A DNA stretch of 64,000 bases from an uncultured virus (IMG/VR IMGVR_UViG_3300026549_002462) (taxonomy: Duplodnaviria; Heunggongvirae; Uroviricota; Caudoviricetes), in the IMG/VR virus record IMGVR_UViG_3300026549_002462. One strand, written 5' to 3'. Shown here one piece after another: positions 15,332-49,015 of this stretch (position 1 is the stretch's first letter; each line of letters begins with the position of its first letter). Below the pieces are notes generated by a model, which searched no databases, was not told the DNA's origin, and saw only the letters and a list, made by a program, of their open reading frames with translations. Made by a program: the position numbers and the translations under genes.

Positions 15332-15420
15332 ATTTTTTCAATTTGAAAAATTTCTCTGTAACGCAGTCAAATCAACGCTTTGGGGCATACTTAAGGATTT
15401 GAAAATTGCGATGGAAATCA
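15332..15420. repeat. ~89 bp dispersed repeat, copy 3 (more diverged)
   Basis: TTTTTCAATTTGAAAAA...ATACTTAAGG...TTGCGATGGAAATCA. Confidence 0.8.
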
Positions 15421-22214: not shown

Positions 22215-22535
22215 TTCCTACCTCGCTTCACTGCTTTGTGCGGCTTTTAGTCCGCTTAGTTTATTCGTTACTCACGCTTTATAAGATATTACCATTTTTT
22301 TACACTATTCGATATGTTTTTTACACTATATTGCAAGTAAATAACATAAAACTGTAATGTGTTGTAGCTATATGATAATATCTAACAGGCTTTTGATGCT
22401 ATAGAAAATTGTTCTTTTTGAAATAAAAGTCAATGAGTAAACCGCTGGGTTTTTATATTAAGTTTATTTTTCAATTTATTTTTTAATTTATTTATCGGAG
22501 CAGCCAAGCCCAGTGATATCAACGGGTTCACGAAA

Positions 22536-23050: not shown

Positions 23051-23093
23051 AAGAGGGTGTTCGCAGTAAAACCACAAAATAAGGTGCGCCCAC

Positions 23094-23142: not shown

Positions 23143-23185
23143 CAAGCTGCAACTATGGCAACGAAGTATAGAGGTGCTTTCAATA

Positions 23186-24442
23186 ATGGCTAACGAAATT
23201 GTAAGATATCATAACGACTTTGCTTCAGTCAGCCTCGTCAGCTTTTCTGCGGTTGAGCAGAACATGTTTGCGGCAGTACTGTATGAATGTCGGGGAAAGG
23301 GTTCACAGAAGCACTATCTGTCTCTTGAATATCTGAGAGAGCTTTCAGGATTTTCGGCAAAGGATAACGCGAGATTTATGTCTTGTGTCAAAGAATTTGC
23401 AAAGAAGATGCACACTCTTTTCTATATGGAAGATAAAGAGGACGGCGGGTTCAAAAGTTTTGTGTTGTTTCCCCGGTTTGAGACAGTGGATCTGGACACG
23501 GATGATCCTAAACTGGAAATAAGGGTGGATGAGGATTACGCTTATATAATCAACACTGATCCGGAGTTTCTCCCCGAAGGGACACTGAAGCTTTTGAGTG
23601 CTGGTTATACCACGTTCGAGCTGGCTCAGCATAATGCTCTGAAATCAGGCTACAGCAAGAATGCATTCAGACAGCTCAAACGGTTCAAAAAGACAGGCTG
23701 GTGGGAGGTATCCATTGAGGATTTCAGGCGGCTTTTAGATGTACCTGAAAAGTACAGGATGTCTGAGCTAAGAAAGCGCGTGCTTGTACCTATCAAAGAG
23801 GAGCTTTCAGATCTGTTCGAAGGGCTTACTATCACCGAAAAAAAGGGAGGGCCGTCAGGTAGGAAGGTTCTTGGTTTGAGATTTGATTTCAAGCCGCAGC
23901 TGGAAAAAGGGATCTGGCACGATGATGATATCTACGGAGAGCTGCGTGAAGAATACAACTGTCCTGTATGCGGAGAACCTTTGTATGCAATAGTCAAGAA
24001 TACAGGTGACGTGTTCTACGGTCATAAAGGAGGGTGGAATACGTCGGCTCCTTGCAGACAAACATTTGGAAGTCTCAGAGAGATACTCAGACAGAAGGGC
24101 AGCCCAATAATTAAAGAAGCTGAAAAGCATCCATATATTGAAAGGGATAAGCCTAAAATAGAAAAAACGGGATTCAGCTGCAGAGCGTGCGGAAAGCCTC
24201 TGTTCAAACTTTACAACGATAAGGGGGAAATGTTCTACGGACATATAGACGGATGGAAGAAAGATGCTGTCTGCAGAGAGACCTACAGCAGCGTTGCTGA
24301 GATAAGAGGGTACAGCGAGACACCGACGCGATCCGATCATGCAGATTATGATTTGACCGAAGGAGATCCTAATACAGCAAAGGATATATACGGGATATTC
24401 GAAACGATAACCAACGATATCATGGACAAGGAGCAGGAATGA
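23186..24442 (+). CDS. repB: Rep_3/RepB-family replication initiator with two C-terminal zinc ribbons
   Basis: IVRYHNDF, LKSGYSK..FRQLKRF, DFRRLLDVP..Y..SEL.KRVL.P motifs. Adjacent iterons. Confidence 0.9.
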   Translation: MANEIVRYHNDFASVSLVSFSAVEQNMFAAVLYECRGKGSQKHYLSLEYLRELSGFSAKDNARFMSCVKEFAKKMHTLFYMEDKEDGGFKSFVLFPRFETVDLDTDDPKLEIRVDEDYAYIINTDPEFLPEGTLKLLSAGYTTFELAQHNALKSGYSKNAFRQLKRFKKTGWWEVSIEDFRRLLDVPEKYRMSELRKRVLVPIKEELSDLFEGLTITEKKGGPSGRKVLGLRFDFKPQLEKGIWHDDDIYGELREEYNCPVCGEPLYAIVKNTGDVFYGHKGGWNTSAPCRQTFGSLREILRQKGSPIIKEAEKHPYIERDKPKIEKTGFSCRACGKPLFKLYNDKGEMFYGHIDGWKKDAVCRETYSSVAEIRGYSETPTRSDHADYDLTEGDPNTAKDIYGIFETITNDIMDKEQE

Positions 24443-30396: not shown

Positions 30397-31185
30397 TTAG
30401 AACTCGTCGAAGTATTCTTCGTCGAATTCATCAGGAAGGGCAACGAATCCCGTGGATTCGAAGTCGTCTTCCTCTGGCTCTGGTGCCGCCTTAGGTGCCG
30501 GGGCTTCATCGGCTGCTGCCACAGCCTCAGGTTTCTTTCCTTTGAGGAAAGAAATGGCGTCCTCGTCTGCCGAAGGGATGACGTCCCAAGTGTAGACCGT
30601 CGTTCCGTCTGAGCGTTTGTAGCTTCCGGTGTCGACTCTTCCCTTGATAACGACTCCCTTGCCCTTTGTAAGATATCTGGCCAGCGCCTCGCCGCGCTTT
30701 CCGTACATCTTTACAGGGATGATGTCCGGGTTCTCCTTGTCCCATGACTTATTGACAAATACGCGGAATTCCACGATAGCTGTCTGCGAGTCCTGGATAT
30801 AGGTAGTTGTGGCATCAGCAGCAATGTTGCCTCTGATTACCGCTGTGGACATTCCGGCTGACCCGCCGTCTTCGATAAGCTGGAACCCCTTCGGGTCGGC
30901 TATCAGCACTTTGGTGTACTGTGTCTTGCCGTCCTTGTTCTTGTAGCTCCCTGTCTGGACTCTTCCGGTCACGGAGACAGTCTTGCCTGCCTTGAGGTAG
31001 TCATAGACGTTCTCGTTACCGTAAAGCTCTACCGGGAAGAAGTTGCTCTTCGGATCGTTGCCCGACTTGGTCTTCCTTCCGTAGTTCCAGACGAGAGTGA
31101 ACTTGGCTACAGGTTTGCCCTTTGCGGTCAATCCAGTGTCAGCGTCCTTGACGATGCGTCCGATAATAGTGAAATAGTTGCTCAT
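30397..31185 (-). CDS. ssb: Single-stranded DNA-binding protein with two tandem OB folds
   Basis: Two YLxxGK.V.V.GR..TGSY repeats and an acidic C-terminal tail ending in F. Confidence 0.88.
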   Translation of the reverse strand: MSNYFTIIGRIVKDADTGLTAKGKPVAKFTLVWNYGRKTKSGNDPKSNFFPVELYGNENVYDYLKAGKTVSVTGRVQTGSYKNKDGKTQYTKVLIADPKGFQLIEDGGSAGMSTAVIRGNIAADATTTYIQDSQTAIVEFRVFVNKSWDKENPDIIPVKMYGKRGEALARYLTKGKGVVIKGRVDTGSYKRSDGTTVYTWDVIPSADEDAISFLKGKKPEAVAAADEAPAPKAAPEPEEDDFESTGFVALPDEFDEEYFDEF

Positions 31186-31357
31186 GGTGTAACCTCCTTT
31201 AAATAAAAGAATGGTTTCACGTCACCGGCATGAAACCATCGCTTGCTTAAATAAAAAAAGCACCTGCCATGTCTGTGGACATACAGGTGCTCCATTATCA
31301 AAGCTGGGAATACGTTAATATGTTTATATTATATATACAAGTGCCGTCAAATACAAG
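31183..31357 (-). promoter_or_regulatory. Conserved structured leader, copy A (promoter-terminator-hairpin-RBS)
   Basis: TTGTAT-17-TATAAT, AGCACCTG...CAGGTGC-T-run, hairpin with CGGTGA loop. Homologous to 44123-44300. Confidence 0.85.
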
Positions 31358-31365
31358 CCGTTTCT

Positions 31366-32367
31366 CTACACATTCGCTTCTGCAAAAGCTCTGATAGCTG
31401 CCTTGTAGTACTCGGCACGTTCTTCAGTCGGAAGTTCTTTTACTTCCTCTGGAACCGCGTCAAGGAACATTGCTTCGGTGACCGACTCTTTCTTGGCTTT
31501 CTTCTTCTTTGTGCGCGGGTTCAGCTTTCCTGCCAGAATGCTTTCGGCCGTCTCTCTTGTGAGTCCGCGGGCTGCAGCTTTCTTAAGCTTCTCCGCTTCC
31601 TTCAGAGATATCGCGATCTCTTTATCTGCTACGATATCTGTAATGACCTCCTGATGCGAAGCACTTAGGTCTGCAAGGATGACGCCGGCTGTAACAGGCA
31701 ATTTTCCTTCATCCACTTTGTCAAGAAGAGCAGGGGAGAGGTCGTTCAGCTTGAGATATCTTCTGACGTTCGAGTCAGAATCAGAGCTTTCCTCGGCAAT
31801 CGCCTTTAACTCATCTGCCTGTCTCTTGCCCTGCCTTACGGCAGCTTCAAGGCGAACTTTGTAAGTTCTGGCTTTTTCGGAAGGGAGTATCGTTTCTCTT
31901 GCGATGTTTGTATCCGCCATGACGATATCTGCCATGTCATCATCAAGGTCAAGTACGCGGCACGGAACTTCACTGAGGCCAAGCTTTTCGGCTGCGAAGC
32001 GGCGCCTGTGACCGGATATGATCTCATATTTCCCACCGTTAAGCTCTCGGACGATGATCGGGAGAAGTATCCCGTAGTCTCTGATGGAGTCTACAAGAAT
32101 GTCCATGTCTTCATTGTCCAGGACTTTGTATGTGTGGTTATGGTAGGTGACGAGATCTTTAAGGGGAATGCTTCTGATATCTCCTTCGCCGGACCTGGCG
32201 ATCTCTATTTCCTTCTTTGTTGGAGCTAATGTTCCCCCGAAGGGCGTATTGAGGATATTGACTGCACCATCTAACAGCCTGCTAAGTGCATCAGGATCAT
32301 TGATTTGCTCTACCTGAGAGGAATCAACGACATTACTGAGGTCATATTTTGGTTTTTTCTTTGCCAT
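31366..32367 (-). CDS. parB: ParB/Spo0J partition protein
   Basis: LVDSIRDYGILLPIIVR, YEIISGHRR, HTH region. Confidence 0.9.
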   Translation of the reverse strand: MAKKKPKYDLSNVVDSSQVEQINDPDALSRLLDGAVNILNTPFGGTLAPTKKEIEIARSGEGDIRSIPLKDLVTYHNHTYKVLDNEDMDILVDSIRDYGILLPIIVRELNGGKYEIISGHRRRFAAEKLGLSEVPCRVLDLDDDMADIVMADTNIARETILPSEKARTYKVRLEAAVRQGKRQADELKAIAEESSDSDSNVRRYLKLNDLSPALLDKVDEGKLPVTAGVILADLSASHQEVITDIVADKEIAISLKEAEKLKKAAARGLTRETAESILAGKLNPRTKKKKAKKESVTEAMFLDAVPEEVKELPTEERAEYYKAAIRAFAEANV

Positions 32368-32370
32368 CGT

Positions 32371-33429
32371 TTATATCTCCTCTCTTTCAAGAAATTCATC
32401 ACACAGCATACTGTAAGCGAGTCTTGTCGGACTGTTTTTCATGAAGTTCATCAGTGGCATTCCTGCAAGCTGTGCCTGGTTGACCACGGTGGATCTAGGT
32501 ATCTGCGTGTTGAATATATACATGTTGCGCTCGATCAGCGGCTCAAACTGGCTCATTACTTCCTTTACAGCCGACCTGTTCTTCTCAACCATAGTATACA
32601 CGAGGCCGGAGAACTCGAGTGGTGGATTTACCGTCGCCTGCACCTTCTGCACTGTAGATACGAGATGGACGATTCCGGATACAGAATAAGGGTCAGGTGT
32701 TGCAGGAACCAGAACTCTGTCGGCCATGTTCAGTACGTTGAGTGTTGTGGCCGAGAGGGCAGGAGGGCAGTCCACCAGGATATAATCGTATTTATCGGTT
32801 ATGCGTGAGAATATGCTGCGGAATATGGTCATGCCGTTATCTTTTTTCTTGAGGAGACCGACTTCTCCCATTCTTTCGTAAAAGGCGTTTTCAGACTGAT
32901 GATATACGTCTACGATCTTTGCAAATCCTTCTACGTACTGCTCAGCACCCGCTTCCCTGACCTTCTCCTGAAGATTATCATAATCGTCGCGGTAGTTTTT
33001 CAGAAACGTTTCCGCAGGTGTAGGCATAGGCGTGATAGAGTACAGGATCTCATCCATACTGGCCATTGCTACACTACCCGGGATGAGATCGACCCCGTAG
33101 TCGGTATGCACGATTACTCCGCTCAGGTCCTTTTTATATGGCCTGTCGTAGATTTCTGCACACAGAAGGGTATAGAGTGTTGCTTTGCATCTGCTTGGCA
33201 TGACACCGAAGGATACTGACAGGTTTTCCTGCTGGTCCGCGTCGATCATAAGGACCTTCTTGCCTCTGGAATTAAGTTCTCTTGCGAGATTGGCAACTGC
33301 TTGTGTCTTTCCTGCGCCGGACTCATCACCTCTTTCCTTCAGTTCCATCGCAAGATTTGCGACTGTAGCGGTTTTTCCGACGCCGCCTTTCTGATTGAAT
33401 ATCGCTATTATTTTAGCTCTTCTTGACAT
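32371..33429 (-). CDS. parA: ParA/Soj partition ATPase
   Basis: NQKGGVGKT, LMIDAD, YDYILVDCPP, IPRS. Confidence 0.9.
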   Translation of the reverse strand: MSRRAKIIAIFNQKGGVGKTATVANLAMELKERGDESGAGKTQAVANLARELNSRGKKVLMIDADQQENLSVSFGVMPSRCKATLYTLLCAEIYDRPYKKDLSGVIVHTDYGVDLIPGSVAMASMDEILYSITPMPTPAETFLKNYRDDYDNLQEKVREAGAEQYVEGFAKIVDVYHQSENAFYERMGEVGLLKKKDNGMTIFRSIFSRITDKYDYILVDCPPALSATTLNVLNMADRVLVPATPDPYSVSGIVHLVSTVQKVQATVNPPLEFSGLVYTMVEKNRSAVKEVMSQFEPLIERNMYIFNTQIPRSTVVNQAQLAGMPLMNFMKNSPTRLAYSMLCDEFLEREEI

Positions 33430-33586
33430 TTTTCTCGCTCCCTTCGTAATGATTCCTAAGAAACTCCTCGATGGCGACTTCTGTGGCGTTCGAGATGCTG
33501 CGCTTCTCTTCCTTGCAGAAGGCTAAGAGTGTTTCAAGCAGAACCGGATCGATAGTCAATGACAGCTTCTTTTTCTTGTTTGACAT
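33413..33586 (-). CDS. Small ribbon-helix-helix protein (57 aa, not in the ORF track)
   Basis: Translated by hand: MSNKKKKLSLTIDPVLLETLLAFCKEEKRSISNATEVAIEEFLRNH... GGAGG RBS, overlaps the parA start. Confidence 0.75.
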   Translation of the reverse strand: MSNKKKKLSLTIDPVLLETLLAFCKEEKRSISNATEVAIEEFLRNHYEGSEKNVKKS

Positions 33587-33811
33587 ATTTTCCTCCGGAT
33601 GTAATGAGTATCTTTGCGTATTAGATGCGTATTGATACGCTTTTTACGTATTGATTGTAGCACATACGGACTCTGCTACAAAGAGGTTCGGTACTTGAGA
33701 AAAAAATACTTTTCGGGCAGTTGTCCGAAGACTCTTTAAAACATCGGGTGTATAATAAAAAATTTTCGAAAAAAAGAAAGCGCCGCACTATGGCGACGCT
33801 CTCCAGGTTCG

Positions 33812-34003
33812 TTAATTTGCGCATTCCTTCCATTTGCCGACCTTGCGGCCTTCTATGAACAGAAATCCTTCTGTATCGCCGTATGCGACACTCGGAACCA
33901 TCTGCTGCTGCATCAGTTCCAGAAGGTACTGAGCTTTTGAGTAAGGTGTGCGCTGGCCGTCATCGGCCAGAAAGGTTGATGTATCTATCATGATCTTAAG
34001 CAT
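33812..34003 (-). CDS. Hypothetical protein
   Basis: 63 aa ORF overlapping the recD2 stop. Confidence 0.5.
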   Translation of the reverse strand: MLKIMIDTSTFLADDGQRTPYSKAQYLLELMQQQMVPSVAYGDTEGFLFIEGRKVGKWKECAN

Positions 34004-35819
34004 TACGGAGTCTCCTTTCGACTGTGTCTGCGAAATCGTCTATAAGCTCTGCCAGACAGCTGATTCTTTCGTTGAAAGCCTCGCTGACGTCATCCGTGCC
34101 TGTAAGTATGACCTTTTCAAGGAGTTTCTTCTGTCCGACGCATATGCATTTCTTCTTGCTGCGGCTTATCGCAGTATAGATGATCTCCCGTGAAAGCATA
34201 TTGGAGTGCTTTTCATCGAGGATGATGATACAAGTCGGATATTCCAGTCCCTGAGACTTGTGCACCGTCTGGACAAAAGCCGGTTCGATGAACGAAAGGT
34301 CGTCGCCATGCAGGACAATCTCTTTATCTCCGAATCTGCATACCGCCGTATCCGGGTAGCACTTTACTGCGATGCCTGTTTCTCCGTTTACGAGACCGTC
34401 ACGGTTTCTGAGAAACGTGATCTTGTCTCCAGTGTAAACTCTGCCGGATTCATTCTCGCAGTAGGTGAGTCCTTTTACATCTGTCAGTACTTTTCTGAGC
34501 TTGCTGTTCAGCTTGTTGACACCTGTTTCAGTGCTTCTTCTGTACGGAGTAAGCACTACTACTGAATCGACGCCGTTTTTCTCTGCTTCCCTTCGGTAGA
34601 GATCAACGACCTGCCTGCAGATCGCTTTGGAAGAGCGCTCTTCTATGAATTCAAAACTGTCGTCTATATCCAGACCGGGATTCCCGGCCTGGATCTTGGC
34701 ACAGTTGAATGCGATCGAATTGTCTCCCTGTCTGAAGATCTTGGTGAGCCTTGTCACCGGGACACTTTCAGACGCGATAAGCTCTGCAAGAACGTTGCCC
34801 GCTCCTACAGATGGAAGCTGAGCGACGTCACCCACGAATACGATCGTTGAGCCTGAAGATATGCTCCTCATCAGGTCCCTGAAAAGATACGCATCTATCA
34901 TCGAAGCCTCATCACATATGATAAGAGTCTCAGACAGAGTACATTTCGATTCGGTGCTGATGCCCGGAACTATCTTAAGGGCCTTGTGGATCGTGGTAGC
35001 GGGGCAGCCTGTCGCGTCGGTCATCCTTCTGGCTGCCTGTCCGGTAGGTGCGATGCACCTTACCGTGGCGTTTGGGTCAAGGTTTTTAAGAGCCTGTATC
35101 AGCACAAGCTCTGTCTGTGTCTTACCCGTACCCGGACCTCCTGTCAGAACAGACATCTTGTTCTGCAATATCATGAATACCGCATTCTTCTGTTCCTGCG
35201 ACAGGATCTTTCCGGTCATTGCCATAGCTGAGTCGATAGCCTTAAATACAGGCTTCAGACGCCCGTACTTCAAAGGTGCGGTAAGCATCGTTGCGGCGAT
35301 TTCCGCTGCTTCCTTCTCGGCGGAATAAGCACTTTTCGTTGCCAGATATATCTGATCGCCTATGCGGTTCACAGATACTTTTCCGGCGAGAGAAAGATGC
35401 TTTATGCATTTGTCGAGAAGCGGCTGCTCTATAGTGCCTTCTTCAAATCCGAGGAGGGATTCGATGAAGTCATATATCCGGCTTTTCGCGATGCAGGTGC
35501 TCCCTGCGTTGTGTGCGATCATCTCGTCAAATGTGTTCTCGTTGTCTTCAGCGCTTCTTGCTGCTCCGCTTTCACATATGTTCAGCGTATAGAGCAGCGC
35601 ATAGGCGATTCTCGAAGGACATAAGGTGTCAACCTTTGTTTTATTGAGAACATACCTGTCTATCACTGAGAACTTTGCGTCCTGTTCCAGCGTCAGCTGA
35701 TAAGGGCAGAACCTCAGGATATCGAGGGATCCATACAGGCCGTACTTGTCGATCATGCTTTCGCATTCAGTCTCCGTGAGGCCGAATGGAGCCAAAGCTC
35801 TGTATAAATCGTTATCCAT
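33996..35819 (-). CDS. recD2: RecD2-like SF1B helicase
   Basis: LTGGPGTGKT, APTG.AA, DEASM, GD..QLPSVG.G, TVHKSQGLE, YTAISR. Confidence 0.9.
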   Translation of the reverse strand: MDNDLYRALAPFGLTETECESMIDKYGLYGSLDILRFCPYQLTLEQDAKFSVIDRYVLNKTKVDTLCPSRIAYALLYTLNICESGAARSAEDNENTFDEMIAHNAGSTCIAKSRIYDFIESLLGFEEGTIEQPLLDKCIKHLSLAGKVSVNRIGDQIYLATKSAYSAEKEAAEIAATMLTAPLKYGRLKPVFKAIDSAMAMTGKILSQEQKNAVFMILQNKMSVLTGGPGTGKTQTELVLIQALKNLDPNATVRCIAPTGQAARRMTDATGCPATTIHKALKIVPGISTESKCTLSETLIICDEASMIDAYLFRDLMRSISSGSTIVFVGDVAQLPSVGAGNVLAELIASESVPVTRLTKIFRQGDNSIAFNCAKIQAGNPGLDIDDSFEFIEERSSKAICRQVVDLYRREAEKNGVDSVVVLTPYRRSTETGVNKLNSKLRKVLTDVKGLTYCENESGRVYTGDKITFLRNRDGLVNGETGIAVKCYPDTAVCRFGDKEIVLHGDDLSFIEPAFVQTVHKSQGLEYPTCIIILDEKHSNMLSREIIYTAISRSKKKCICVGQKKLLEKVILTGTDDVSEAFNERISCLAELIDDFADTVERRLRNA

Positions 35820-35878
35820 TTGTGTTGTTTCCTTTCCCGGAGCAGGGGAGAGTTAAGATCTCCCTCTGTCCGATCCAT

Positions 35879-37081
35879 CTAAACTGCTTCTTCTGGGGCT
35901 TCCTCTTTTGAGGTGTACTTGAAATCGCAGCGGAGGGTCGGTTTGAGATTGCTGATCTCCTCCCAAAGCTCCGGATAATCTTCCGCTACTTTCTGCTTGA
36001 CATCTTTGTCAAGGCTGAAGCTGCGTACTACGTCGATCTGGTAGATCGCTCTTGACGTCTCAATGATTCCGCCTGGCGCATTGCCGATGTGCGGAAGAAG
36101 GGAAGAGCGAAGCTTCTTTTCTTCTGCCTCGATCTGGCGGATGAGCTTAGTGGAATCCTTGATGTCGTCGTTCAGAGCGTCCTTGTCCTTTGCGAGCTTT
36201 TCAAGTTTGTTCAGGGTGCCGAGGGCTTTGCGCGGAAGCTTTACATAGCCGAGCGTGTCGTCGACAGTCCTGTAAACATGGGCGGCCTCGTCAGGAAGGA
36301 GGACCTCATCGTACTCGATCCCCGCTGCTGTCTCTGCAACGAATCTTGCACAGTCCTCAAGTATCTTGATGGCACGTTCTTCATCGCGTGCAACGTGGAG
36401 GTAGACAAAGTCTTCTGCGCTGTCAGCGTGCTTGCTGTGAGCAAGAACGTAGCAGTCATCGATTCCGAGGACCTGCATGTAGGCCTGCACCTGATCCTGA
36501 TAGTCTTCAGGTACGTACCCGGCACTGAATTCATCTTTCCATGTAGCAGCGCTCTTGTGCGAGGATTTGACCTCTGCCAGAGCAACGATTTTTCTGGTCT
36601 TTCTGTCTCTCAGAAATCCATCGGGATGAGCGAGGAATGTCGGCCAGTTTGTGTTGATATATCCGTAGTCACACGGTTCATAAACAACATCTATGCCGTT
36701 TCTTCTCATCTTGCCTGCGCAGAACCTTCCGATGTCGGTCTCGAAGATGTGGCCGTAATCGTAGATGAACTGCTGGCTCGGAAGGGTGGCTTTTTCGACA
36801 TGCCCGAGCTTCTCAAGCTGAAGAAACCTTCTGGTCTTGAAGCTGCTGTGTCCCTCGATGATCCCTGCGTCAGATCCACCCGTGAAGAACGGTATCATAT
36901 CGCTGTATTCAGCGAGAAACGCTTCTCCTTCCGGGGTGTTGAACTTGCCTTTTCTGAATTCGTTTCCGAATGTCGCGTCGAATTCTTCCTGTGTGAGGTA
37001 TCCGCTGTCCAGGGCTTCTGCATAGCTGCTCATGTCCTGAACGATTATAAGGTCGCTCCCAGTTATTGTTGTGTCCTTCAT
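35879..37081 (-). CDS. YqaJ/lambda-exonuclease-like nuclease
   Basis: GGSDAG, GH.FE, AHPDG, AEVK, Y..QVQ.YM. Confidence 0.8.
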   Translation of the reverse strand: MKDTTITGSDLIIVQDMSSYAEALDSGYLTQEEFDATFGNEFRKGKFNTPEGEAFLAEYSDMIPFFTGGSDAGIIEGHSSFKTRRFLQLEKLGHVEKATLPSQQFIYDYGHIFETDIGRFCAGKMRRNGIDVVYEPCDYGYINTNWPTFLAHPDGFLRDRKTRKIVALAEVKSSHKSAATWKDEFSAGYVPEDYQDQVQAYMQVLGIDDCYVLAHSKHADSAEDFVYLHVARDEERAIKILEDCARFVAETAAGIEYDEVLLPDEAAHVYRTVDDTLGYVKLPRKALGTLNKLEKLAKDKDALNDDIKDSTKLIRQIEAEEKKLRSSLLPHIGNAPGGIIETSRAIYQIDVVRSFSLDKDVKQKVAEDYPELWEEISNLKPTLRCDFKYTSKEEAPEEAV

Positions 37082-37142
37082 AATAATTCCTTTCCGGCAG
37101 GGAAGGAGCCGTTGGGCCCCTCCTCGCCTGTGCTTGTTCCTG

Positions 37143-40100
37143 TTAAGCCTTTTTCCTTGCTTTACGCTCGGTTTTTTCGGCTACTTCCTTGATTCTTTTT
37201 TCGCGTTTTTTGTCGCTTTCCTTCTTGCCCTCTTCCTTGACATCGGAAACGTCAACTCCGGCTATCTTGGCAGCCTCCTTGACGAACTCGTTATACGCGA
37301 ATCCTGATTCAGCGGTGCCCGAGAGTCTGACCTGTCCGGTTATGAACAGTTCATCTCTTGCTCGTGTTGCCGAAACGAAGAGGAGCCTTCTGTTTTCCTC
37401 TCTCTCATCGAGGCTCATTCCGTCCTTCTTGTCATATTTGGTGATTGAGTTGATGATGACCGGCCACTCAAGACCTTTGGACGAGTGTGCTGTGGAGAGT
37501 ACTACGCCAGAATAAAGACCTTCTCTTTTGAGTTCTTCGCCGTCAAAGCGGATGAATGCGTCAATGTAGCTGACCATTTCATCGGTAGTGACGAAGCGAA
37601 CGAGCCTCTTGGCGAGGTTTACAGCGACATCATCCTCTGCTGCGATCTCCTTAGCGAGCGCTCTGAAAGCCTCGGATCTCTTAGGCTCGTAAAGTGAACG
37701 CAGGTGAAGGATCGTCTGCTGACCTTCATCGATGATCTCATTGATTTCCTCATCCGTGTTGGAAAGGACCTTTCCACCTTCAAGGCAATTCTGGAAAATC
37801 AGGATCTCTTTTGTGGCGGTGTAGTCTTTGTATGCTCTGGCGAGAGAACATATTCCCTGAACTCTGGAGTTCTCAAGCATCTTCTGAGGTGCCTGAAGTG
37901 AGGATTCGATGCCTTCGTCTGTGAGCTTTCCTGCGATCTTGACGATCTCGGTCTTTGTTCTTGCAAGGATAGCGATATCTTCAGGGGCATAACCCTCTTT
38001 GATTTTCTCCTTGACGACGGAAACGATGTAGTCGTATTCCTTGTCGACCTTATAGAATGCCTTGACGGTCACCGGCTTGCCGGATGGTCTTGTTGCAACG
38101 AGGTCTTTTTCGACTCTTCTTATGTTGAGCGCGTTGACTTTGTTGGCAAACTCGAGGATCTCCGGTGTTGAACGATGGTTTTCGACGAGATTGACGTCCT
38201 TTACGGGCTGACCGATGCGGTCCTCGAACTCGATGATGTTGCCGGAGTCGGCATCACGCCAGCTGTAGATAGCCTGGCTGTCATCACCGACTACCAGAAG
38301 CGATTCAAATGCAGCAACATCGAGAAGCTGTTTTATGATCTCCATCTGGTTTTTCGAGGTATCCTGGAACTCGTCAATGATGATGTGCTTGTAGCCCATC
38401 TTGTCGAAGTAGTAAGGGTCCATGTCGAGAATATCGAAGATCATGGCTTCCTGATCAGCAAATTCGATCAGGTTCCTTGACCTTAATGTCTCGTCGTAGT
38501 CCTCATACAGCTCGAGAAGAGCCTGATAAGCATCTTCACTGTCAATGGACGAATACCATTTCACATTCAGCTTTCTTCTCAGCTCATCTACATCGTAGAC
38601 CGAGAGCCTGTCGCGCTTGATGATTTCGAACGCAGCTTCCGTTACGAGCCTTGCTCCGCCGAAACCTTTGAACTTAAGGTTTATGTTCTCGTAGTAAAGA
38701 CCCGGAACGGTCTTTTTATCGAGAAGGCGGGCGATGATGGCAGATCTTTCCGTGGCGTCGATAGGGCGGGGCGGAGCGGTGAATCCAAGACGTCCGAACT
38801 CAGTGTTCAGAATGTCCTGTCCGAACTCATTGAATGTGACGATACGAATATCGTTTACATCCATGTCTATACCCAGTCCTTTGAGGTATGATGATGTCCT
38901 GTCTTTCATCTCTCTTGCTCCTGCGTTGGAGAAGGTGATGAGAAGTATGGATGCGGGATCAATCCCCTCAGCGATCATGAACGCCGTGTTCAGAGCTACC
39001 ACTGTGGTCTTTCCGGAGCCTGCTCCTGCATTGCAGCGCATAATACCGTGTCTATGCCTTACGACCTCGTCCTGCTTGTCGGAAAGCGAGATGCCTGAAA
39101 GAGGCTTTTCTCTTCTTTCGACCTCAGTTTTGAGAGGTGCTTCGGCAAAGTGGCACAGCTGGTACCAATCGCAGTCAAGGCAATCATCTCCGTCGCAGTC
39201 GTGGCCGATGATGTATTCCTTGAACTGAGGCTCATAAACCTTGTCTATCTCGACTGCCATGCCGGAGAGTGTGCAGATATGTCTTCTTTTCTCGTCTGAG
39301 AAGAAGCCCGGGACAAGATGATCCGTGCGGTCTGAGTCCTTGCGGAGAAAGTAATAGCTTCCCTTTGCAGCCCAGTCTTCCGGATCTTTTTCCTTAGCAG
39401 CTTCGCTTCTGGCATAAGCGTATATGCCGTAAAGCTCTTTATTGTTAAGAATATTTCTGTCCTGTGATCTTCCGCGTGCCGAACAATCAGGCTTGCCACA
39501 TCTGATACGGATAGCTTCGATTGTTTTCGTACGTACATTTCTGTACAGAAGATCAGGTCTGGCCCCCTTGACTTCCTGTCCGAAAAGAACAAGGTCTTTA
39601 GGTGCCGGAACTGTGAGGCTTCTTTCTTCTTCGTCGAGATATCTGAATATTCTCCTGGAAACTGTCTCGCCGAGAAGGCGGGCGGTCTCTCTTGTGTCGA
39701 AGCTGTAGCTTCTGTACGTGCGGAGGATCAGATCTTTTACATAGTCCTTGCGGCTTGCCAGCTTGACGACCATAAACGCCTTTGTCTCGTTGAAAATTCC
39801 GGTGATAAGGTCGAATCTTCCGTCTGCACGAAGGATCGACTTTACTCCGTCATAGACGTAGAGCATATCGTCTTCGACAAGATCTCTTTCAAGTTTGTCC
39901 TGAATTAGCATGATTGCTGTTTTCACGTCATAGTCGCGGTCACGGAGTGACTTGCTCCAGAACCAGTTTTTGATGACTGTTTTCTGGAATGCGAACTGTT
40001 CGTAGCGATCATCCTTTCCGCTTGAAAGGTTCAGATCTCTTGAACGCTTGGAATAACAGGAATTATTTCCTTTGAGTTGTGAAAGTCGCACTGATTCCAT
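37143..40100 (-). CDS. UvrD/PcrA SF1A helicase with N-terminal Cas4/AddB-like domain
   Basis: AGAGSGKT, IDEFQD, VGDDSQAIYSWR, NHRST, STAHSSKGLEW, FVSATRA. Start MESVR at 40100. Confidence 0.88.
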   Translation of the reverse strand: MESVRLSQLKGNNSCYSKRSRDLNLSSGKDDRYEQFAFQKTVIKNWFWSKSLRDRDYDVKTAIMLIQDKLERDLVEDDMLYVYDGVKSILRADGRFDLITGIFNETKAFMVVKLASRKDYVKDLILRTYRSYSFDTRETARLLGETVSRRIFRYLDEEERSLTVPAPKDLVLFGQEVKGARPDLLYRNVRTKTIEAIRIRCGKPDCSARGRSQDRNILNNKELYGIYAYARSEAAKEKDPEDWAAKGSYYFLRKDSDRTDHLVPGFFSDEKRRHICTLSGMAVEIDKVYEPQFKEYIIGHDCDGDDCLDCDWYQLCHFAEAPLKTEVERREKPLSGISLSDKQDEVVRHRHGIMRCNAGAGSGKTTVVALNTAFMIAEGIDPASILLITFSNAGAREMKDRTSSYLKGLGIDMDVNDIRIVTFNEFGQDILNTEFGRLGFTAPPRPIDATERSAIIARLLDKKTVPGLYYENINLKFKGFGGARLVTEAAFEIIKRDRLSVYDVDELRRKLNVKWYSSIDSEDAYQALLELYEDYDETLRSRNLIEFADQEAMIFDILDMDPYYFDKMGYKHIIIDEFQDTSKNQMEIIKQLLDVAAFESLLVVGDDSQAIYSWRDADSGNIIEFEDRIGQPVKDVNLVENHRSTPEILEFANKVNALNIRRVEKDLVATRPSGKPVTVKAFYKVDKEYDYIVSVVKEKIKEGYAPEDIAILARTKTEIVKIAGKLTDEGIESSLQAPQKMLENSRVQGICSLARAYKDYTATKEILIFQNCLEGGKVLSNTDEEINEIIDEGQQTILHLRSLYEPKRSEAFRALAKEIAAEDDVAVNLAKRLVRFVTTDEMVSYIDAFIRFDGEELKREGLYSGVVLSTAHSSKGLEWPVIINSITKYDKKDGMSLDEREENRRLLFVSATRARDELFITGQVRLSGTAESGFAYNEFVKEAAKIAGVDVSDVKEEGKKESDKKREKRIKEVAEKTERKARKKA

Positions 40101-40183
40101 TGTGTTGTTTCCTTTCCACCACAAAAGGAGAGACTTGCGGCCTCTCCTCTCGTGGATTTAATAATATTTAACTATATCTTTTC

Positions 40184-42727
40184 TTAGTGAAAGTATCTCT
40201 GCAGGATGCGTGTAAGCTCGTCTTCGATCTCGTCGAGAGAAGCGAAGATGATCTCTTGGCCGTACATTTCTCTGAAAACTGCAAAGTCTTCATCGTCTTG
40301 ATCGTGGTACATATACATGCCGATCGTGCGGATGCCTGCCTTGCGAGCGTCTTCTACTGCTGATTTTACATCCTTGATGCCTTCTTTGAAGCCACCTCTG
40401 TAGTCAGTAGGGAAGCCGTCTGATGCGATGATCAGGATCTTGTCCTTCTCAGGTCTCATTGAGAGCTGCTTGGCTGCGACACGGATGCTGTAGCCGTCCT
40501 TGTTGCCCCAGCCGGATCTTCCGAGGTCTCTGAAGTTGTATGACAGATTCGCAGGTGCGACCTCGTCAAACTCCTTGATGACTTCGTGCATGACTCTGTC
40601 AGAACCGTTTGCGTCGAACGCAGCGATCTTGAGAGGCATGTGATCCTTGAAGCCTTCCTCCAGAACAGCGAATGCGTTGCAGCATGCAAATCTTGTTGAG
40701 CCCGGACCATTTCCCATCGAGCCGGAATTGTCCATAAGGAGGAATCCGGCTACGTCTGACTTTACAGGCGCTCCCTTTTTCTTGAACACGTCGATATCGC
40801 CCATCGCGAGATTAGCGATCCTTCTTGTGTCAAGCATACCGGATCTTAAGAACCTCAGATCTGGCTCCTGCTTATTCTTGATAAGCTGGTCGATCTTGCG
40901 GTCAAGAGACTTGCCCTTGTTTTCAAGTTCCATAGGGAGCCTTCCTGTCGGATCGTACTTTCTTACGGATTCTGTGAATTTCACATTGCCTGCGTATCTG
41001 GCATCGATATCTCCCATAGGGATCGGTGTCGAAGTAACAGGTTTGAAATTCTTAGCCGCCTTGCTGAAGGCTTCATCAAGCTTTGCGTCTGCTTCAGCAA
41101 TCTCAAAGTCTGCAGATGCCTTCTTTGCAGCTTCTTCCATAGCCTCTTCGAGGCGGGAAGTGAATTCCTCTTCCGACAGGCTGCTTTCAGAGGCGCTCTC
41201 AACGACATTGTTGCTTCCGGTATCGTTGTTCTCTGTGAACAGGCCGTCTGCGGATTCAATGCCGTCAGTTTCATCGGAGCCGCCAGAAGATTTGCCTGAT
41301 TTCTCTCCGGATCCGGTTGCGCTGTCGGAGCTGCTTTCTGAGGAGGAGTCGAAACCGTCTCCGTTTCCTTCTTCTCCGCTGTCGGATGATTCGCTTCCGG
41401 CATTATCGGCAGGTTCTCCTCTCTTATCTGAAGCAGAGGAGTCTTTGCCGGATTTGCCAAGCGATATCCCGCTTGCTGCAGCTTCGTCTGCCTCATCAGA
41501 TCCTTCGCTGTCGGAATCGTCTTCTCCGTTTTCGGAAGAATTGGTATCGGCTGCCTTGCCGGAGCTTTTACCTTTTTCGGAATCTGAAGGGTCGTCGCCG
41601 TCTTCGCTGTCGCTTTTGACTTTGAACTTTACACCCGGTGCCGAGTCGTCGTCGAGCTCAGACTCTTCCTTGAGCTTTTCGTAAGTTTCTTTATCGACTT
41701 CCATCTCAAGTTCGGTCTGTCCGAAGACACTCTCCGCAGGTGTTCCGTCGCCCTTTTCCTCAGTGGAAGGGGAGGCGGACATCTTGGTCTTGTCAAGATT
41801 TTCAAGAAGCTTATCGACAAGCTTCTCGAGGAACTTCTTGAATGCTTTTGCATCAGCCTCAACTGAGCAGACGTCAACGATCATGTCCAGAAGGCGATCG
41901 AATATGATGCGTCCCTGGTCCATGCATTCCTTGCAGGTCTTTCCGAGTACTGCTGCTGCGATCTCCGGTATGAAGCTGGCACACAGATCATGCGCGTCGG
42001 TTCCGCCGTATGCTGCGAGGAATCCACGCTGGTAGATACCAAGTGTTGCAAGCGGATACAGCTGCCCGAGGATCATTACCAGCTTATCGAAGTCGTTAAG
42101 GTCAGCAGGGTCTTCTTTGAAGCCGTCCATGTCGCGGAAATCGTCTTCAAGCCATCTCTTACCGCGGAATGTTTTGCGGTAATTGCCGAAGCCCGGATGG
42201 AGCTGCGTGCGGATGTTCTCGATCCTGCCATCCTCGAGTACGTTGAGCACATACTTGATGTACTCGAAAAGAAGCTGCTGATTGACGAAAATGCCTTTAT
42301 TGGCCAGTTCTGCGAAGAACTTTTCGTAATCCGAGTCCTTTGTGAGGCGACGCGGCTTGCCGAACGCCTTGATGGCGAGCTTGTCGCAAGCTCTGTTGAA
42401 GCACATCTTCTGTGCTGCCTCCCAGTCCTTCGCGGTCGTTGATAGCATATGCTGAAGCTCGTGACCGAGAAGGTGATGGACCTGATCGAAAAATTCCTGC
42501 GGAGTGTCCGCATCAACCATTCCATATCCGATGTGAATCGTGCAAGGGTAGGTTCTGCCTGTCTTTTCGTCCTTGAATGCAGGATGCTGATAGCTTCCGT
42601 CATCAGGCTCAAGCTCAAATACAGGAATCTTCTTTATGGTGTGTGCAAGGCACTCAACATATATAAGCGATTCGAAGTGTCTGCGCCATTTGAGCGCAAG
42701 GTTGGTCTTTTCTTTCATAGTCAGCAT
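40184..42727 (-). CDS. vWA-domain protein (NorD/CobT-like) with acidic Ser-rich linker
   Basis: N-terminal HELQH and LEDGRIE, MIDAS DNSGSM, SDG.P. Confidence 0.85.
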   Translation of the reverse strand: MLTMKEKTNLALKWRRHFESLIYVECLAHTIKKIPVFELEPDDGSYQHPAFKDEKTGRTYPCTIHIGYGMVDADTPQEFFDQVHHLLGHELQHMLSTTAKDWEAAQKMCFNRACDKLAIKAFGKPRRLTKDSDYEKFFAELANKGIFVNQQLLFEYIKYVLNVLEDGRIENIRTQLHPGFGNYRKTFRGKRWLEDDFRDMDGFKEDPADLNDFDKLVMILGQLYPLATLGIYQRGFLAAYGGTDAHDLCASFIPEIAAAVLGKTCKECMDQGRIIFDRLLDMIVDVCSVEADAKAFKKFLEKLVDKLLENLDKTKMSASPSTEEKGDGTPAESVFGQTELEMEVDKETYEKLKEESELDDDSAPGVKFKVKSDSEDGDDPSDSEKGKSSGKAADTNSSENGEDDSDSEGSDEADEAAASGISLGKSGKDSSASDKRGEPADNAGSESSDSGEEGNGDGFDSSSESSSDSATGSGEKSGKSSGGSDETDGIESADGLFTENNDTGSNNVVESASESSLSEEEFTSRLEEAMEEAAKKASADFEIAEADAKLDEAFSKAAKNFKPVTSTPIPMGDIDARYAGNVKFTESVRKYDPTGRLPMELENKGKSLDRKIDQLIKNKQEPDLRFLRSGMLDTRRIANLAMGDIDVFKKKGAPVKSDVAGFLLMDNSGSMGNGPGSTRFACCNAFAVLEEGFKDHMPLKIAAFDANGSDRVMHEVIKEFDEVAPANLSYNFRDLGRSGWGNKDGYSIRVAAKQLSMRPEKDKILIIASDGFPTDYRGGFKEGIKDVKSAVEDARKAGIRTIGMYMYHDQDDEDFAVFREMYGQEIIFASLDEIEDELTRILQRYFH

Positions 42728-42739
42728 AAGATCACCTCC

Positions 42740-44125
42740 TTAGAATGTGATCTTGTCACGGACCATGCCGCCTAAGACCATGCGCTCTTCAGGCAGACAG
42801 CCGTTCAGGACCTGGATCGTGATACGGTGTGCAAGGCTTGTGGCTTCAGGGAACCTCTCAACGTCTGCAAGAGCTCTTACGAACCCTCTGATGTTGAGGC
42901 ATCTTTTAGATACGCGGCCTTGTTCAACAGCACTTTTGAAATCCTTGTAGACTCTTGAGCATGCCTTGAAGTGTTTCTTGCTGAGCTTGGTATCTTCAGG
43001 GAAGTTTGCTCTGAGGAGGCTTTCGATGTCTTCCGGCATCTCGACCTGGATCCTCGCGAGTCTTGAAGATGTAGCCTCGTTCAGTTCTCTTGTTCCTGCG
43101 TAGTCTGAACCGACCGGGTTCATACCGCCCGCAAGAACGCAGTGAGGGTGAAGCTTGATAGCTCCTTCTCCGCCAGGGAGTACAAGAACGCGCTCTCCGT
43201 CAGCAAGAGGGTGTACCAGAGCCTGAAGGAAGTTGGCTTCTGCCATGTTGATCTCGTCAAACAGCAGAACGCCTCCGTCCTTTGCCCAGTCTACGATCTC
43301 CGCCTTGTTCTGGATGATCCTCAGGGATGCACTCTGAGCTTTCAGCAGCTCGAACTTTGCCGCATCAGCGAGGTAGTTTTCGTATTTCACCGGATCGGCG
43401 GATACGAGGACCTTTGCCATTGCGAGCTCAAGGTCAAGGCCTTCAGCTGCAGAGTTGTCTGTGGACTTTCCTCCGAAGACGGAGTCCATGTCCATGCCTG
43501 CGGACATTCCGATCCTGTAGTACGGTTTGCAGTTGAACCATGCAAGTGTAGTTGTCAGAACGTTCTTGCCCGTTGACTTTTCTCCTTCAAGAAGGAGACC
43601 TTCTCCATTGAGCATGCAGATGATTGCATCGTTCATGTAGGAAAATTCAGTGCTAGGGTTTCCATCCTGATAGATCGGCATTCCGTTAGGCTTGAAGCGC
43701 TTTTCAGAGGCATTTGCTACTCTCTCTCTAAGCACGCGTGCTATGAGGGTAGGGTGCACTCTGTTGTCCTCCATGCATTTGATCATGGCGTCGACTTCTT
43801 CTTCCGGAACGGATTCAAAGTCGATGAGGGCTTTTTCAGCTGCGTAATCGCCGCCGTTTGCAGATGTCTCTGCGCAGTCAACGTCGATGATGAACGAGAG
43901 GGTCTCCGCTCCCGGCCCTACGAGCTTAGCCTCATAGAGCTTCGGGATCTCGAAGCCGTCTTCTGCGTAGCCGATCGACAGATCGTCAATGACGGCCTCA
44001 ACCTTATTTCCCGGAGCTGGTCTGAAGAATACCGGAGTCAGTACCGACTTGCCGTCATTCAGAAGCTCTGAGAAGTGATTTGCTCCAGGCTGCAGAAATG
44101 TTCCTTTTACTGTGATAGTTTTCAT
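42740..44125 (-). CDS. MoxR/CbbQ-type AAA+ ATPase
   Basis: GEKSTGKN, LFDEIN, GMNP..YAGT..LN.A..SR. Confidence 0.88.
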   Translation of the reverse strand: MKTITVKGTFLQPGANHFSELLNDGKSVLTPVFFRPAPGNKVEAVIDDLSIGYAEDGFEIPKLYEAKLVGPGAETLSFIIDVDCAETSANGGDYAAEKALIDFESVPEEEVDAMIKCMEDNRVHPTLIARVLRERVANASEKRFKPNGMPIYQDGNPSTEFSYMNDAIICMLNGEGLLLEGEKSTGKNVLTTTLAWFNCKPYYRIGMSAGMDMDSVFGGKSTDNSAAEGLDLELAMAKVLVSADPVKYENYLADAAKFELLKAQSASLRIIQNKAEIVDWAKDGGVLLFDEINMAEANFLQALVHPLADGERVLVLPGGEGAIKLHPHCVLAGGMNPVGSDYAGTRELNEATSSRLARIQVEMPEDIESLLRANFPEDTKLSKKHFKACSRVYKDFKSAVEQGRVSKRCLNIRGFVRALADVERFPEATSLAHRITIQVLNGCLPEERMVLGGMVRDKITF

Positions 44126-44300
44126 GGTGTTATCTCCTTTCGTTAAATAGAAAATGACTTCGCGTCACCGCTGCGAAGCCACCGTTTGCTTAAACAAAAA
44201 AGCACCTGCAATGCCCTAAAGACATACAGGTGCTCCGATTGTAAGCTGAGAATACGTTAATATGAGTATATATTATAGCATTCCGGCTGATTTTACAAGT
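44123..44300 (-). promoter_or_regulatory. Conserved structured leader, copy B
   Basis: TGcTATAAT, CATATTAACGTATTC, AGCACCTG...CAGGTGC-T-run, hairpin with CGGTGAC loop. Confidence 0.85.
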
Positions 44301-44309: not shown

Positions 44310-44588
44310 CTACTTGTTGACTGCGTCCTTGAGTCCCTTTCCGGCCTTGAAGGAAGGTACAGTCGCTGCAGGGATGACTACGGTCTCTTCAGGATTGTGA
44401 GGGTTTCTTCCGGCCCTTTCCTTACGCTGTCTGGTTTCGAATGTACCGAAGCCGATAAGTCTTACGCTGTCTTTCTCCTTGAGCGCATCTGTGATTGCTG
44501 CAAATACAGCGTCTGTTGCGGCGGCTGCATCTTTCTTGGACAGAAATGCTTTCTCTGCTACCTTTTCTATAAGTTCTGCTTTGTTCAT
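44310..44588 (-). CDS. hup: HU family DNA-binding protein
   Basis: MNKAELI...GFGTF...R.GRNP...P.FKAGK.LKDAV. Confidence 0.95.
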   Translation of the reverse strand: MNKAELIEKVAEKAFLSKKDAAAATDAVFAAITDALKEKDSVRLIGFGTFETRQRKERAGRNPHNPEETVVIPAATVPSFKAGKGLKDAVNK

Positions 44589-48517: not shown

Positions 48518-49015
48518 ATGAATCAGGTCATATTAATCGGAAGACTGACAAGAGATGTTGAGCTGTCATACACACCATCCACACAGCAGCCGGTAGCAAA
48601 ATTCACCCTCGCTGTAGACAAGCCGAGGCGAGAAGGACAGGACCAGGGTGCTGATTTCATCAGGATCACGGTCTGGGGCAAGCAGGCAGAGACCTGCGAG
48701 CGATATCTGTCAAAGGGAAGACAGGCGGCCGTACAGGGAAGGATCCAGACTGGAAGCTATACAAAGGACGGTGTGACTGTATATACGACTGACGTTGTTG
48801 CCGACAGGGTAGAGTTCCTCGGCGGTGGACAGGGCGGTCAGAGCGGTCAGGAACGCGGACGCGGAAGTGCACCGAGAGACAACGGCCGCACAGGCGGCAG
48901 CGGGAACTCGCGCGCAAACAACAGCTATAACAATCCGGACAGCAGATTCGGATTCAACGACTTCGACGATCTTCCGGATACTTTCGAAGCAGCAGAAGAT
49001 GACATCCCGTTCTAA
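48518..49015 (+). CDS. ssb: Canonical single-stranded DNA-binding protein
   Basis: MNQVILIGRLTRD...DDIPF. Confidence 0.95.
   Translation: MNQVILIGRLTRDVELSYTPSTQQPVAKFTLAVDKPRREGQDQGADFIRITVWGKQAETCERYLSKGRQAAVQGRIQTGSYTKDGVTVYTTDVVADRVEFLGGGQGGQSGQERGRGSAPRDNGRTGGSGNSRANNSYNNPDSRFGFNDFDDLPDTFEAAEDDIPF

Follow-up and report, generated by a model that had tools for sequence, protein, structure and literature searches.

The 64,000-nucleotide stretch of DNA analysed here (IMG/VR record IMGVR_UViG_3300026549_002462; hereafter, the window) carries two copies of a structured leader cassette, one upstream of a gene for a single-stranded-DNA-binding protein (ssb) and the other upstream of an operon headed by the gene of an AAA_5 ATPase; which cassette is repeated five times, on one strand, along the contig containing the window. 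This five-copy, operon-head cassette is real and previously uncatalogued. Read on the minus strand, its parts follow one another as a sigma-A-type promoter, a nearly invariant 22-nt segment (the box), an 8-nt variable spacer, a long terminator hairpin (T1) with its tract of U6–7, the sequence TTTAAGCAA, a second hairpin (H2), a U-rich run, AGGAG(G), ACACC, and the ATG. We tentatively propose, with a confidence falling a little short of an even chance, that the cassette defines a plasmid regulon whose operons are expressed through a conditional read-through of T1, in a logic like that of the EGeRS elements of the plasmids pLS20 and p576. Control would likely reside in the box and in T1, close to the promoter, instead of in H2, the hairpin showing covariation.

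Copy number and distribution of the cassette

The window sits within a 162,836-bp contig (C42) of the genome G001—the window position being the contig position minus 29,952—and, judged by gene content, that contig looks like a conjugative megaplasmid of a rumen bacterium of the Clostridia. A BLAST search of the genome located the cassette at five places with E ≤ 2e-20, the next four places having E-values above 1; a covariance model derived from all five returned the same set and nothing else in G001, and with the filters off the model found just two copies in the window, the other three being outside. A previous sequence-only reading had described a duplicated leader of this architecture before the ssb and AAA_5 genes, and both stretches were indeed found there, on the minus strand and with their parts in the order described; the duplication, real and beyond chance, proved nevertheless to comprise not two copies but five. 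The T1 pattern occurred twice in the window versus not once in 100 shuffles, and the leaders of copies 1 and 2 folded with z values of −5.69 and −4.74, respectively, none of 200 shuffled sequences being as stable. Each copy abuts or leads into the first open reading frame (ORF) of a string of genes, and four of the five end at a ribosome-binding site (RBS) followed by ATG. A mobile repeat in the manner of the miniature inverted-repeat transposable elements was considered as well, and was rejected in view of the single orientation, the fusion to the RBS, and the absence from the rest of the genome.

The expectation that no known RNA family was involved was borne out: upon comparison of the window with the 4227 Rfam families at the gathering threshold no match was obtained in the leaders—a HEARO RNA and a tRNA being recognised elsewhere in the window—and permissive scans of the five leader regions produced best E-values of 0.18–1.7, all far below the gathering scores. 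PLSDB contained neither a DNA match to the leader (blastn) nor a tblastn match to the AAA_5 protein. An exact search for the box among the species genomes led to only one contig of a metagenome-assembled genome, whose leaders were identical to copies 3 and 5; and among 151 related genomes the covariance model had matches in G001 (five copies) and G056 (three copies) only. As those three score like three of the G001 copies, G056 looks like a carrier of the same element, a likeness by score alone. Across the order (401 genomes) the AAA_5 protein had, besides the plasmid itself, only weak MoxR-like matches (28–36% identity over residues ~270–455). On viral contigs the AAA_5 alignment found no relative, and the box pattern found seven stretches of one unrelated sequence with neither terminator nor hairpin after the match, which occurrences we took as chance.

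Anatomy of the leader

The common form of the box is CATATTAACGTATTCYCAGCTT, which begins about 6–7 nt after the −10 hexamer, i.e., at about +1 to +22; that of T1 is AGCACCTGTATGTC, a loop, and GACAT-N-GCAGGTGC, followed by U6–7. The cassette spans ~150 nt between the −10 and the ATG, or ~175 nt with the −35 included, and has a GC content of 41–45% versus 46–52% in the flanking windows. The positions of copies 1 and 2 and of the surrounding genes are collected in Table 1.

Table 1. Window positions of the parts of leader copies 1 and 2 and of the neighbouring genes.
Feature	Position	Strand	Remarks
Copy 1, whole (−35 to ssb start codon)	31183..31356	−	120 bits to the covariance model R1
Copy 1, promoter TTGTAT-17-TATAAT	−35 31356-31351; −10 31333-31328	−	Read from the sequence
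Copy 1, box CATATTAACGTATTCCCAGCTT	31301..31322	−	
Copy 1, T1	31291-31260; T7 31259-31253	−	13-bp stem, 1-nt bulge, loop CACA; −18.3 kcal/mol
Copy 1, H2 ATGGTTTCATG / CCGGTGA / CGTGAAACCAT	31211..31239	−	Followed by a U-rich run; −14.0 kcal/mol
Copy 1, AGGAGG and ATG	31198-31193; 31185-31183	−	
Copy 2, whole (−35 to AAA_5 start codon)	44123..44298	−	122.6 bits
Copy 2, promoter TTGTAA-15-TATAAT	44298-44293; 44277-44272	−	
Copy 2, box CATATTAACGTATTCTCAGCTT	44243..44264	−	
Copy 2, T1	44234-44202; T6/U6 44201-44196	−	−18.5 kcal/mol
Copy 2, H2 GTGGCTTCGC / AGCGGTGAC / GCGAAGTCAT	44154..44182	−	−14.5 kcal/mol
Copy 2, start codon ATG	44125-44123	−	
ssb	30397..31185	−	262 aa, two SSB-domain stretches; first gene after copy 1
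Genes after ssb	down to about 24758	−	Rad52-like, DUF3854, DUF5688
parA and parB	31366..33429	−	352 aa and 333 aa
57-aa gene ahead of parA	33413..33586	−	Candidate ribbon-helix-helix DNA binder
par promoter TTGTAG-16-TACAAT	33611..33681	−	Then three direct AATACG(T/C) units and one inverted
Copy 2 operon	33996..44125	−	AAA_5 ATPase, VWA-like protein, UvrD-type helicase, YqaJ/lambda-exonuclease-like protein, RecD-like helicase
End of the copy 2 operon	33804-33775		63-aa ORF, then a conventional terminator (at the position given)
HU-like gene	44310..44588	−	Directly upstream of copy 2; neighbourhood also present in the diverged relative L061

As predicted in silico, all five copies have a promoter of the form TTGnnn-15/17-TATAAT (or TAATAT), those of copies 3 and 4 being TTGnnn-17-TATAAT in the promoter scan. 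T1 is likewise present in all five as a 13-bp stem with a bulge, at −17.5 to −18.5 kcal/mol and followed by U6–7, which are the features of an intrinsic terminator; the stem can be extended further by the pairing of GCUU with AAGC, and its A-rich 5′ flank with the U tract. The promoter and the intrinsic terminator that head these plasmid operons have a genuine appearance, in support of the sequence-only reading. H2 is located downstream of T1 and 15–20 nt ahead of the RBS; a U-rich run follows it in four of the five copies, and the terminator scan flagged the H2 of copy 1. Between T1 and the RBS, inspection of the leader sequences revealed nothing further that resembles a promoter. A separate conventional terminator precedes the cassette promoter in copies 3 and 4, and none was seen there in copies 1, 2, and 5. 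A leader peptide encoded in the spacer was rejected, an AUG being present there in just two of the five copies.

Conservation and covariation

The RNAalifold consensus of the five copies consists of two helices, the extended T1 and H2, with 95.9% of the cells on that structure being paired, versus 36–44% when the partners were slid. The compensatory changes in H2 that had been listed between copies 1 and 2 are correct; and in the five-copy alignment two pairs, both among the ten of H2, do change on both sides. The covariation evidence is nonetheless thin, five related paralogs carrying little statistical weight: the same count was reached by 258 of 500 shuffles, the covariation score was reached by 12 of the 500, and one H2 pair appears as G-C, as G.U, and—in three copies—as an A.C mismatch. 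Nor is the loop CGGTGAC invariant, as had been supposed: it occurs in four of the five copies, is replaced by AAAAATGCC in the fifth, and differs in a diverged relative.

The variation among the copies is distributed unevenly along the leader. Only one of the 18 columns of the box core and two of the 27 in the T1 stem vary (one of the latter being the bulged base), versus all 13 of the columns of the spacer plus T1 loop and eight of the 20 in the H2 stem, which is thus the least constrained of the paired parts. Fisher tests gave p values of 0.011 for T1 versus H2 and of 7e-8 for the box versus the spacer plus loop, both of which are overstated since the copies are kin. Such a mosaic at a scale of 10 nt seems hard to explain by recent copying alone, and the comparison points to a sequence-specific constraint that would fall on the box and T1, beyond the needs of structure, and not on H2. 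The conservation continues, in four of the five copies, through H2, the RBS, and ACACCATG.

Two further pairings were predicted. The ACGUAU of the box can pair with the GUAUGU of the T1 5′ arm in a weak helix of 6 bp with two G.U pairs, which pairing was present in the partial fold of four of the five copies, the whole partial folds amounting to −6.5 to −9.5 kcal/mol across the five. The 5′ box may also pair at long range with the Shine–Dalgarno (SD)/start region (UUCY with GGAG, UCAU with AUGA), with no compensatory change.

Diverged relatives of the copy 2 leader

Metagenomic relatives of the AAA_5 protein encoded after copy 2 share 91, 86, 57–62, and 37–49% identity with it. Upon scanning metagenome contigs with the alignment of those relatives we obtained 19 loci, among which the leader model recognised only L059, a 99% variant. 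The L059 leader 2 differs from copy 2 of the window in one base of the T1 loop, in the first base of the H2 loop, and in its spacer, which is like that of copies 1 and 3; that leader carrying the spacer of another copy, the copies must therefore exchange sequence. No second leader was found among the internal repeats of four long metagenome loci.

The layout is retained at a larger distance. In L061 (with L060), whose AAA_5 protein is 62% identical, a gene for an HU-like protein (47% identical to that of the window) is followed by TTGCAT-17-TATAAT, ~45 nt, a terminator with U8, a second hairpin, the RBS, and the AAA_5 gene; thus, the order of the parts is that of the cassette, with the sequence being mostly different. 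In L061 the terminator stem gains length from pairing between an A-rich segment and the U tract and from closing G-C pairs, the second hairpin contains a GAA/GAA internal loop, and the minimum-energy fold includes an 8-bp pairing of the box with the SD. In the 40% relative L064 a promoter, a terminator with an extended stem, a small hairpin, and a further terminator are located upstream of AAA_5; and between the two terminators (L064, ~5580–5910) there is also an arginine/lysine-rich mini-ORF of 14 codons. The 46% relative L062 has a terminator and an RBS only.

Conditional read-through of T1 as the proposed mechanism

In the mechanism that we propose, transcription from the sigma-A-type promoter would begin at the 22-nt box and reach T1 after ~35 nt, the default product being mostly a terminated RNA of about 66–69 nt; and the downstream operons—ssb with the recombination genes, the AAA/VWA pair, the helicases, and dozens of small ORFs—would be expressed only by read-through of T1. 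That read-through would be conditional, being set by a plasmid-specific factor recognising the invariant sequence of the box and/or of T1. We infer this conditionality from the promoter-then-terminator order, which a diverged relative retains, and from the constrained sequence of the box and T1, a constraint indicative of a specific factor; the activities of the promoter and the terminator are likewise predicted.

The factor could operate by several routes: by stabilising the alternative pairing between the box and the T1 5′ arm, as an antiterminator loaded onto the polymerase at the promoter-proximal box, or in the form of a trans-acting RNA. In the late control of lambdoid phages, which involves the PR′ promoter, the qut site, and the tR′ terminator, a short RNA is the default product unless the Q antiterminator acts. 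The cassette is like that system in having a strong promoter, a near terminator, and conserved DNA that runs from the −10 hexamer into the first transcribed segment, including a −10-like CATATT at ~+1; it differs in that no Q-like protein was recognised and in the occurrence of five copies on a plasmid, so that the likeness is one of logic only. A strict version of this route, which we hold to be improbable, would have T1 stop both the polymerases reading in from upstream and the unmodified ones from its own promoter, with only a polymerase that picks up the plasmid factor at the +1 to +22 box being able to pass. If true, a Q-like logic would exist in a plasmid, in the Clostridia, and in five copies, and the five operons would fire together, as for example upon entering a new host.

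Since the hairpin H2 is transcribed after T1 and lies 15–20 nt ahead of the SD, we assign it to the read-through mRNA, where a role as a 5′ stabiliser or a modulator of translation would be more likely than one in termination. The separate terminators upstream of copies 3 and 4 imply that at these copies the preceding operon can be ended without T1, which acts on the RNA made from the cassette promoter; at copies 1, 2, and 5, where such a terminator was not seen, T1 can therefore also insulate. Repression at the box might constitute a second layer of control.

Several observations weigh against this proposal. A leaky, unregulated terminator would yield the same sequence picture, and the invariance of the box and T1 is drawn from five related paralogs between which exchange does occur. 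The pairing of ACGUAU with GUAUGU is much weaker than T1, and both of its sides are invariant, so that it derives no support from covariation. As to the factor, the search turned up no antiterminator candidate: the ConAn1 domain (PF17362) was not found at E ≤ 1 in G001, a genome 85% complete in which the plasmid contig is included; the sole match to an NGN domain was on another contig (C36), where we took it as the housekeeping NusG, the plasmid contig having none; and for the neighbours of 201 and 180 aa nothing was suggested by the protein atlas. Finally, four runs of bovine-gut RNA libraries carry the stretch solely as assembled contigs, possibly derived from DNA, which contigs break within the repeated box/T1 (31303/31305 and 44244) and are thus uninformative on starts, ends, or levels.

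Alternative explanations

Of the alternatives, a repressor–operator cassette with zygotic induction, similar to that of EGeRS2/Reg576, is the main one, although we consider it unlikely. The box would then be a DNA operator overlapping the transcription start, T1 would be a constitutive, leaky damper or insulator, and the candidate repressor, presumed to act on the box, would be the ribbon-helix-helix (RHH)-like protein of 57 aa encoded ahead of parA. The almost invariant box is indeed at the classical position of an operator (+1 to +22), and its opposite strand reads GAATACGT, with a cluster of AATACG(T/C) units being present at the promoter of the 57-aa gene; by our own estimate, a given 6-mer has a ~1% chance of landing in a 22-nt box. 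Each leader, however, has but one exact unit, the second (AATATG) being degenerate and, in copy 4, shifted; and AATACG is not enriched on the contig (82 observed versus ~80 expected). The 57-aa protein gave weak matches to DUF6364 (E 0.0023), RHH_5 (E 0.2), and the PDB entry 2k9i (E 0.41), and its predicted model comprises an extended N-terminus followed by two helices, but a fold search with that model obtained no match at E ≤ 0.001. The parallel with p576, in which the RHH repressor acts on four promoters of establishment genes, including its own (PMC6294495), speaks in the same favourable sense. What an operator leaves unexplained is the invariance of the T1 stem and the terminator-after-promoter order, common to the plasmid and its diverged relative. 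Repression at an operator and read-through of T1 may well coexist as layers.

That the promoter, the box, and T1 would instead constitute small-RNA genes, producing a trans-acting RNA of ~67 nt with a single-stranded, pyrimidine-rich 5′ seed (UAUUCYC), is quite improbable. The targets would be SD regions, for example, and the downstream genes would be expressed by leakage. A promoter, an unpaired 5′ end of ~30 nt, and a strong terminator do have the shape of a Gram-positive small-RNA gene, and the box can pair with its own SD/start region, as in the 8-bp helix of L061; yet these long-range pairs exhibit no compensatory change, and a search for complementary plasmid targets at 12 of 14 matching positions found none beyond chance, with seven and two non-self matches against ~5 expected per strand by our own estimate. 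Moreover, the conservation extends through H2 and the RBS in four of the five copies, so that the evolution of the unit is that of an mRNA leader.

The sequence-only reading had made H2 the regulatory heart, as a boxB-like protein-binding hairpin or an antisense target whose loop controls the read-through, a role that we find very doubtful. H2 is admittedly the only helix with double-sided changes (two of the ten pairs), its CGGTGAC loop is identical in four of the five copies, and a hairpin is found at the equivalent position in the relatives of 62% and 40% identity. Being transcribed after T1, however, H2 is unable to affect that terminator; other loops occur in the fifth copy and in the relatives; and its stem, with the A.C mismatch in three copies and eight of its 20 columns variable, is not where the strongest sequence constraint is found, which lies in the box and the T1 stem.

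Highly improbable, lastly, is an element acting as DNA, whether through hairpins of the transferred single strand (with a function in priming, as a single-strand origin, or as a single-stranded-DNA promoter of the Frpo kind) or through T1 as a dispersed binding site for ParB, in the way of the KorB sites in RK2: the five copies do share one orientation, copy 1 comes directly after parB, and ssb is the classical gene under a single-stranded-DNA promoter in the leading regions of F-like plasmids, but the promoter hexamers lie upstream of both hairpins and form no part of an inverted repeat as they do in Frpo; the bulge, the 3–6-nt loop, and the U tract of T1 suit an RNA terminator better than an operator of fixed spacing; its G.U pairs would be A.C mismatches on the other strand; and each of the copies either sits precisely at an RBS or leads on to an ORF.

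Comparison with known systems

The EGeRS1 of pLS20 is a conserved, non-coding sequence of predicted structure that is repeated before five operons immediately upstream of the RBS and stops upstream transcription, and the EGeRS of the pLS20 family served to define the regulon (PMC8708921). The cassette, being repeated upstream of the RBS of several operons of a Gram-positive conjugative plasmid, is alike in that respect. It differs in size and composition, the EGeRS1 having 420–750 bp, a GC content high relative to its plasmid, many inverted repeats, and—in that description—no demonstrated constitutive promoter (PMC8708921), whereas the cassette has ~150 nt at 41–45% GC, a sigma-A-type promoter predicted in each of the five copies, and two hairpins, of which one is a terminator. 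In the EGeRS2 of p576 the operator is a dual TTATCCC motif bound by the RHH repressor Reg576 (PMC6294495). With that type the cassette shares a predicted promoter in every copy, and a small plasmid repressor acting on several promoters, its own among them, would be a plausible layer (the 57-aa RHH-like candidate); but of the five matches to TTATCCC in the window none is within 31183–31357 or 44123–44300, and no promoter-proximal terminator appears in the description of EGeRS2 (PMC6294495). By these published descriptions the cassette is not a member of either the EGeRS1 or the EGeRS2 type; the likeness in logic drawn in the sequence-only reading is supported. With the cassette as a third design, in which a promoter with a built-in terminator is repeated before several operons, the EGeRS concept would come to include uncultured Clostridia of the rumen, and the cassette would mark a co-regulated set of genes whose kind has until now been described from Bacillus plasmids alone.

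Attenuation within a leader also has parallels. In the cATT of pLS20 a single 456-nt leader contains a central long hairpin that becomes longer when an upstream stem-loop pairs with the terminator, and the same report cites the counter-transcript attenuation of pCF10 (PMC13401043). What the cassette would share with these is a 5′ leader in which an intrinsic terminator governs the expression of a conjugative-plasmid operon once initiation has taken place, along with a conserved upstream segment suspected of recruiting a factor. In the cassette, however, the long hairpin is the terminator itself, the GCUU:AAGC extension stabilising rather than competing with it; that extension does not invade H2, as a zipper-type mechanism would have it, and a pairing of the box with the base of H2 would amount to only a few weak pairs; and the cassette, unlike cATT as described, is repeated five times. 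The promoter scan showed no antisense promoter aimed into the leader. With respect to a classical attenuator, the only mutually exclusive alternative is the weak 6-bp ACGUAU:GUAUGU pairing, without covariation.

The terminator stems of B. subtilis average 9 ± 2 bp, and that of the antitermination-resistant TerR is 15 bp (PMC10325885). T1 approaches the latter in its unusually long stem (13 bp plus the extension) and in the pairing of an A-rich 5′ flank with the U tract; but TerR, as described, is situated at the end of an operon, and T1 after a promoter. The processive antitermination of conAn involves the ConAn1 protein (PF17362), encoded at the head of the operon (PMC8191782), from which the cassette is set apart by the above-mentioned negative result with that domain in G001; a regulon of the RfaH/LoaP type would involve a NusG paralog, and none was present on the plasmid contig. 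The insulator of Tn916 with canT, as described (PMC11658703), differs from the cassette as well.

Gene setting of the cassette and other features of the contig

The genes surrounding both of the leaders in the window are encoded on the minus strand, parB ending ~10 nt before the copy 1 promoter. The regulon would here comprise ssb, the recombination and helicase genes, the AAA/VWA pair, and ~40 small ORFs with no assigned family. Copy 3 precedes a gene of 265 aa and a long string of small, family-less ORFs, while copy 5 precedes a gene for a membrane-like protein of 99 aa and another such string; copy 4, with a variant H2 and no adjacent RBS, leads to an ORF of 79 aa through an untranslated region of ~200 nt. 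NCBIfam left nearly all the genes of the regulon unnamed. The cassette would provide a simple sequence handle for finding the plasmid's co-regulated, largely unknown genes. The label "establishment" as applied to these operons rests only on gene content, namely ssb, the recombination and helicase genes, and the many small ORFs. Neither a relaxase of the families PF03432, PF03389, and PF02486 nor an oriT was found on the plasmid contig, because of which the leading region could not be placed. A second ssb gene (48518–49015), on the strand opposite to that of the ssb behind copy 1, encodes an ordinary SSB of 165 aa.

The AATACG(T/C) cluster that follows the −10 of the promoter of the 57-aa gene, parA, and parB is the sole cluster of that motif on the contig, and the repeats would likely constitute an autoregulatory operator or a centromere-like site. 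In addition to ParA and ParB, the contig encodes an initiator of the Rep3 family (23174–24442), beside which ten iterons with the core AATCGTGACATTTTGGGG are arranged at a spacing of ~32 nt in two blocks (22520–23052), likely the replication origin. The type IV secretion set comprises a VirB4-like protein, two coupling proteins, a TrbL-like protein, and an M23/NlpC hydrolase. Between small genes upstream of the coupling-protein gene of that system a second intergenic cassette is present in three copies on the minus strand (12880–13010, 14069–14180, and 15306–15415), each in the order CCATCGCAA..CCTTAAGTATAGCTG, a variable hairpin, GCGATTTTTTT, and the palindrome TTTTTCAAATTGAAAAA; and it looks like another unit consisting of a −10-like sequence, a hairpin, and a U run.

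The remaining cargo includes sortase-dependent adhesins and three IscB genes. A tRNA gene (53490–53561) is followed by the HEARO RNA (53659–53931; 121.7 bits) and by an IscB-type RRXRR protein (54033–55382), near which lie another RRXRR gene and one resembling TnpB/Cas12f (56510–57973 and 60376–61503), with the third RRXRR gene being outside the window (L013, 7819–9168). Also outside the window, but on the same contig (L012, 6278–9931 and 12296–18698), are a Cas12a (Cpf1), a type I restriction–modification set, and a GmrSD-type nuclease. Finally, a protein of 273 aa (55502–56323) combines a GNAT acetyltransferase domain with the C-terminal domain of the RNA polymerase alpha subunit, which fusion is unusual on a plasmid.

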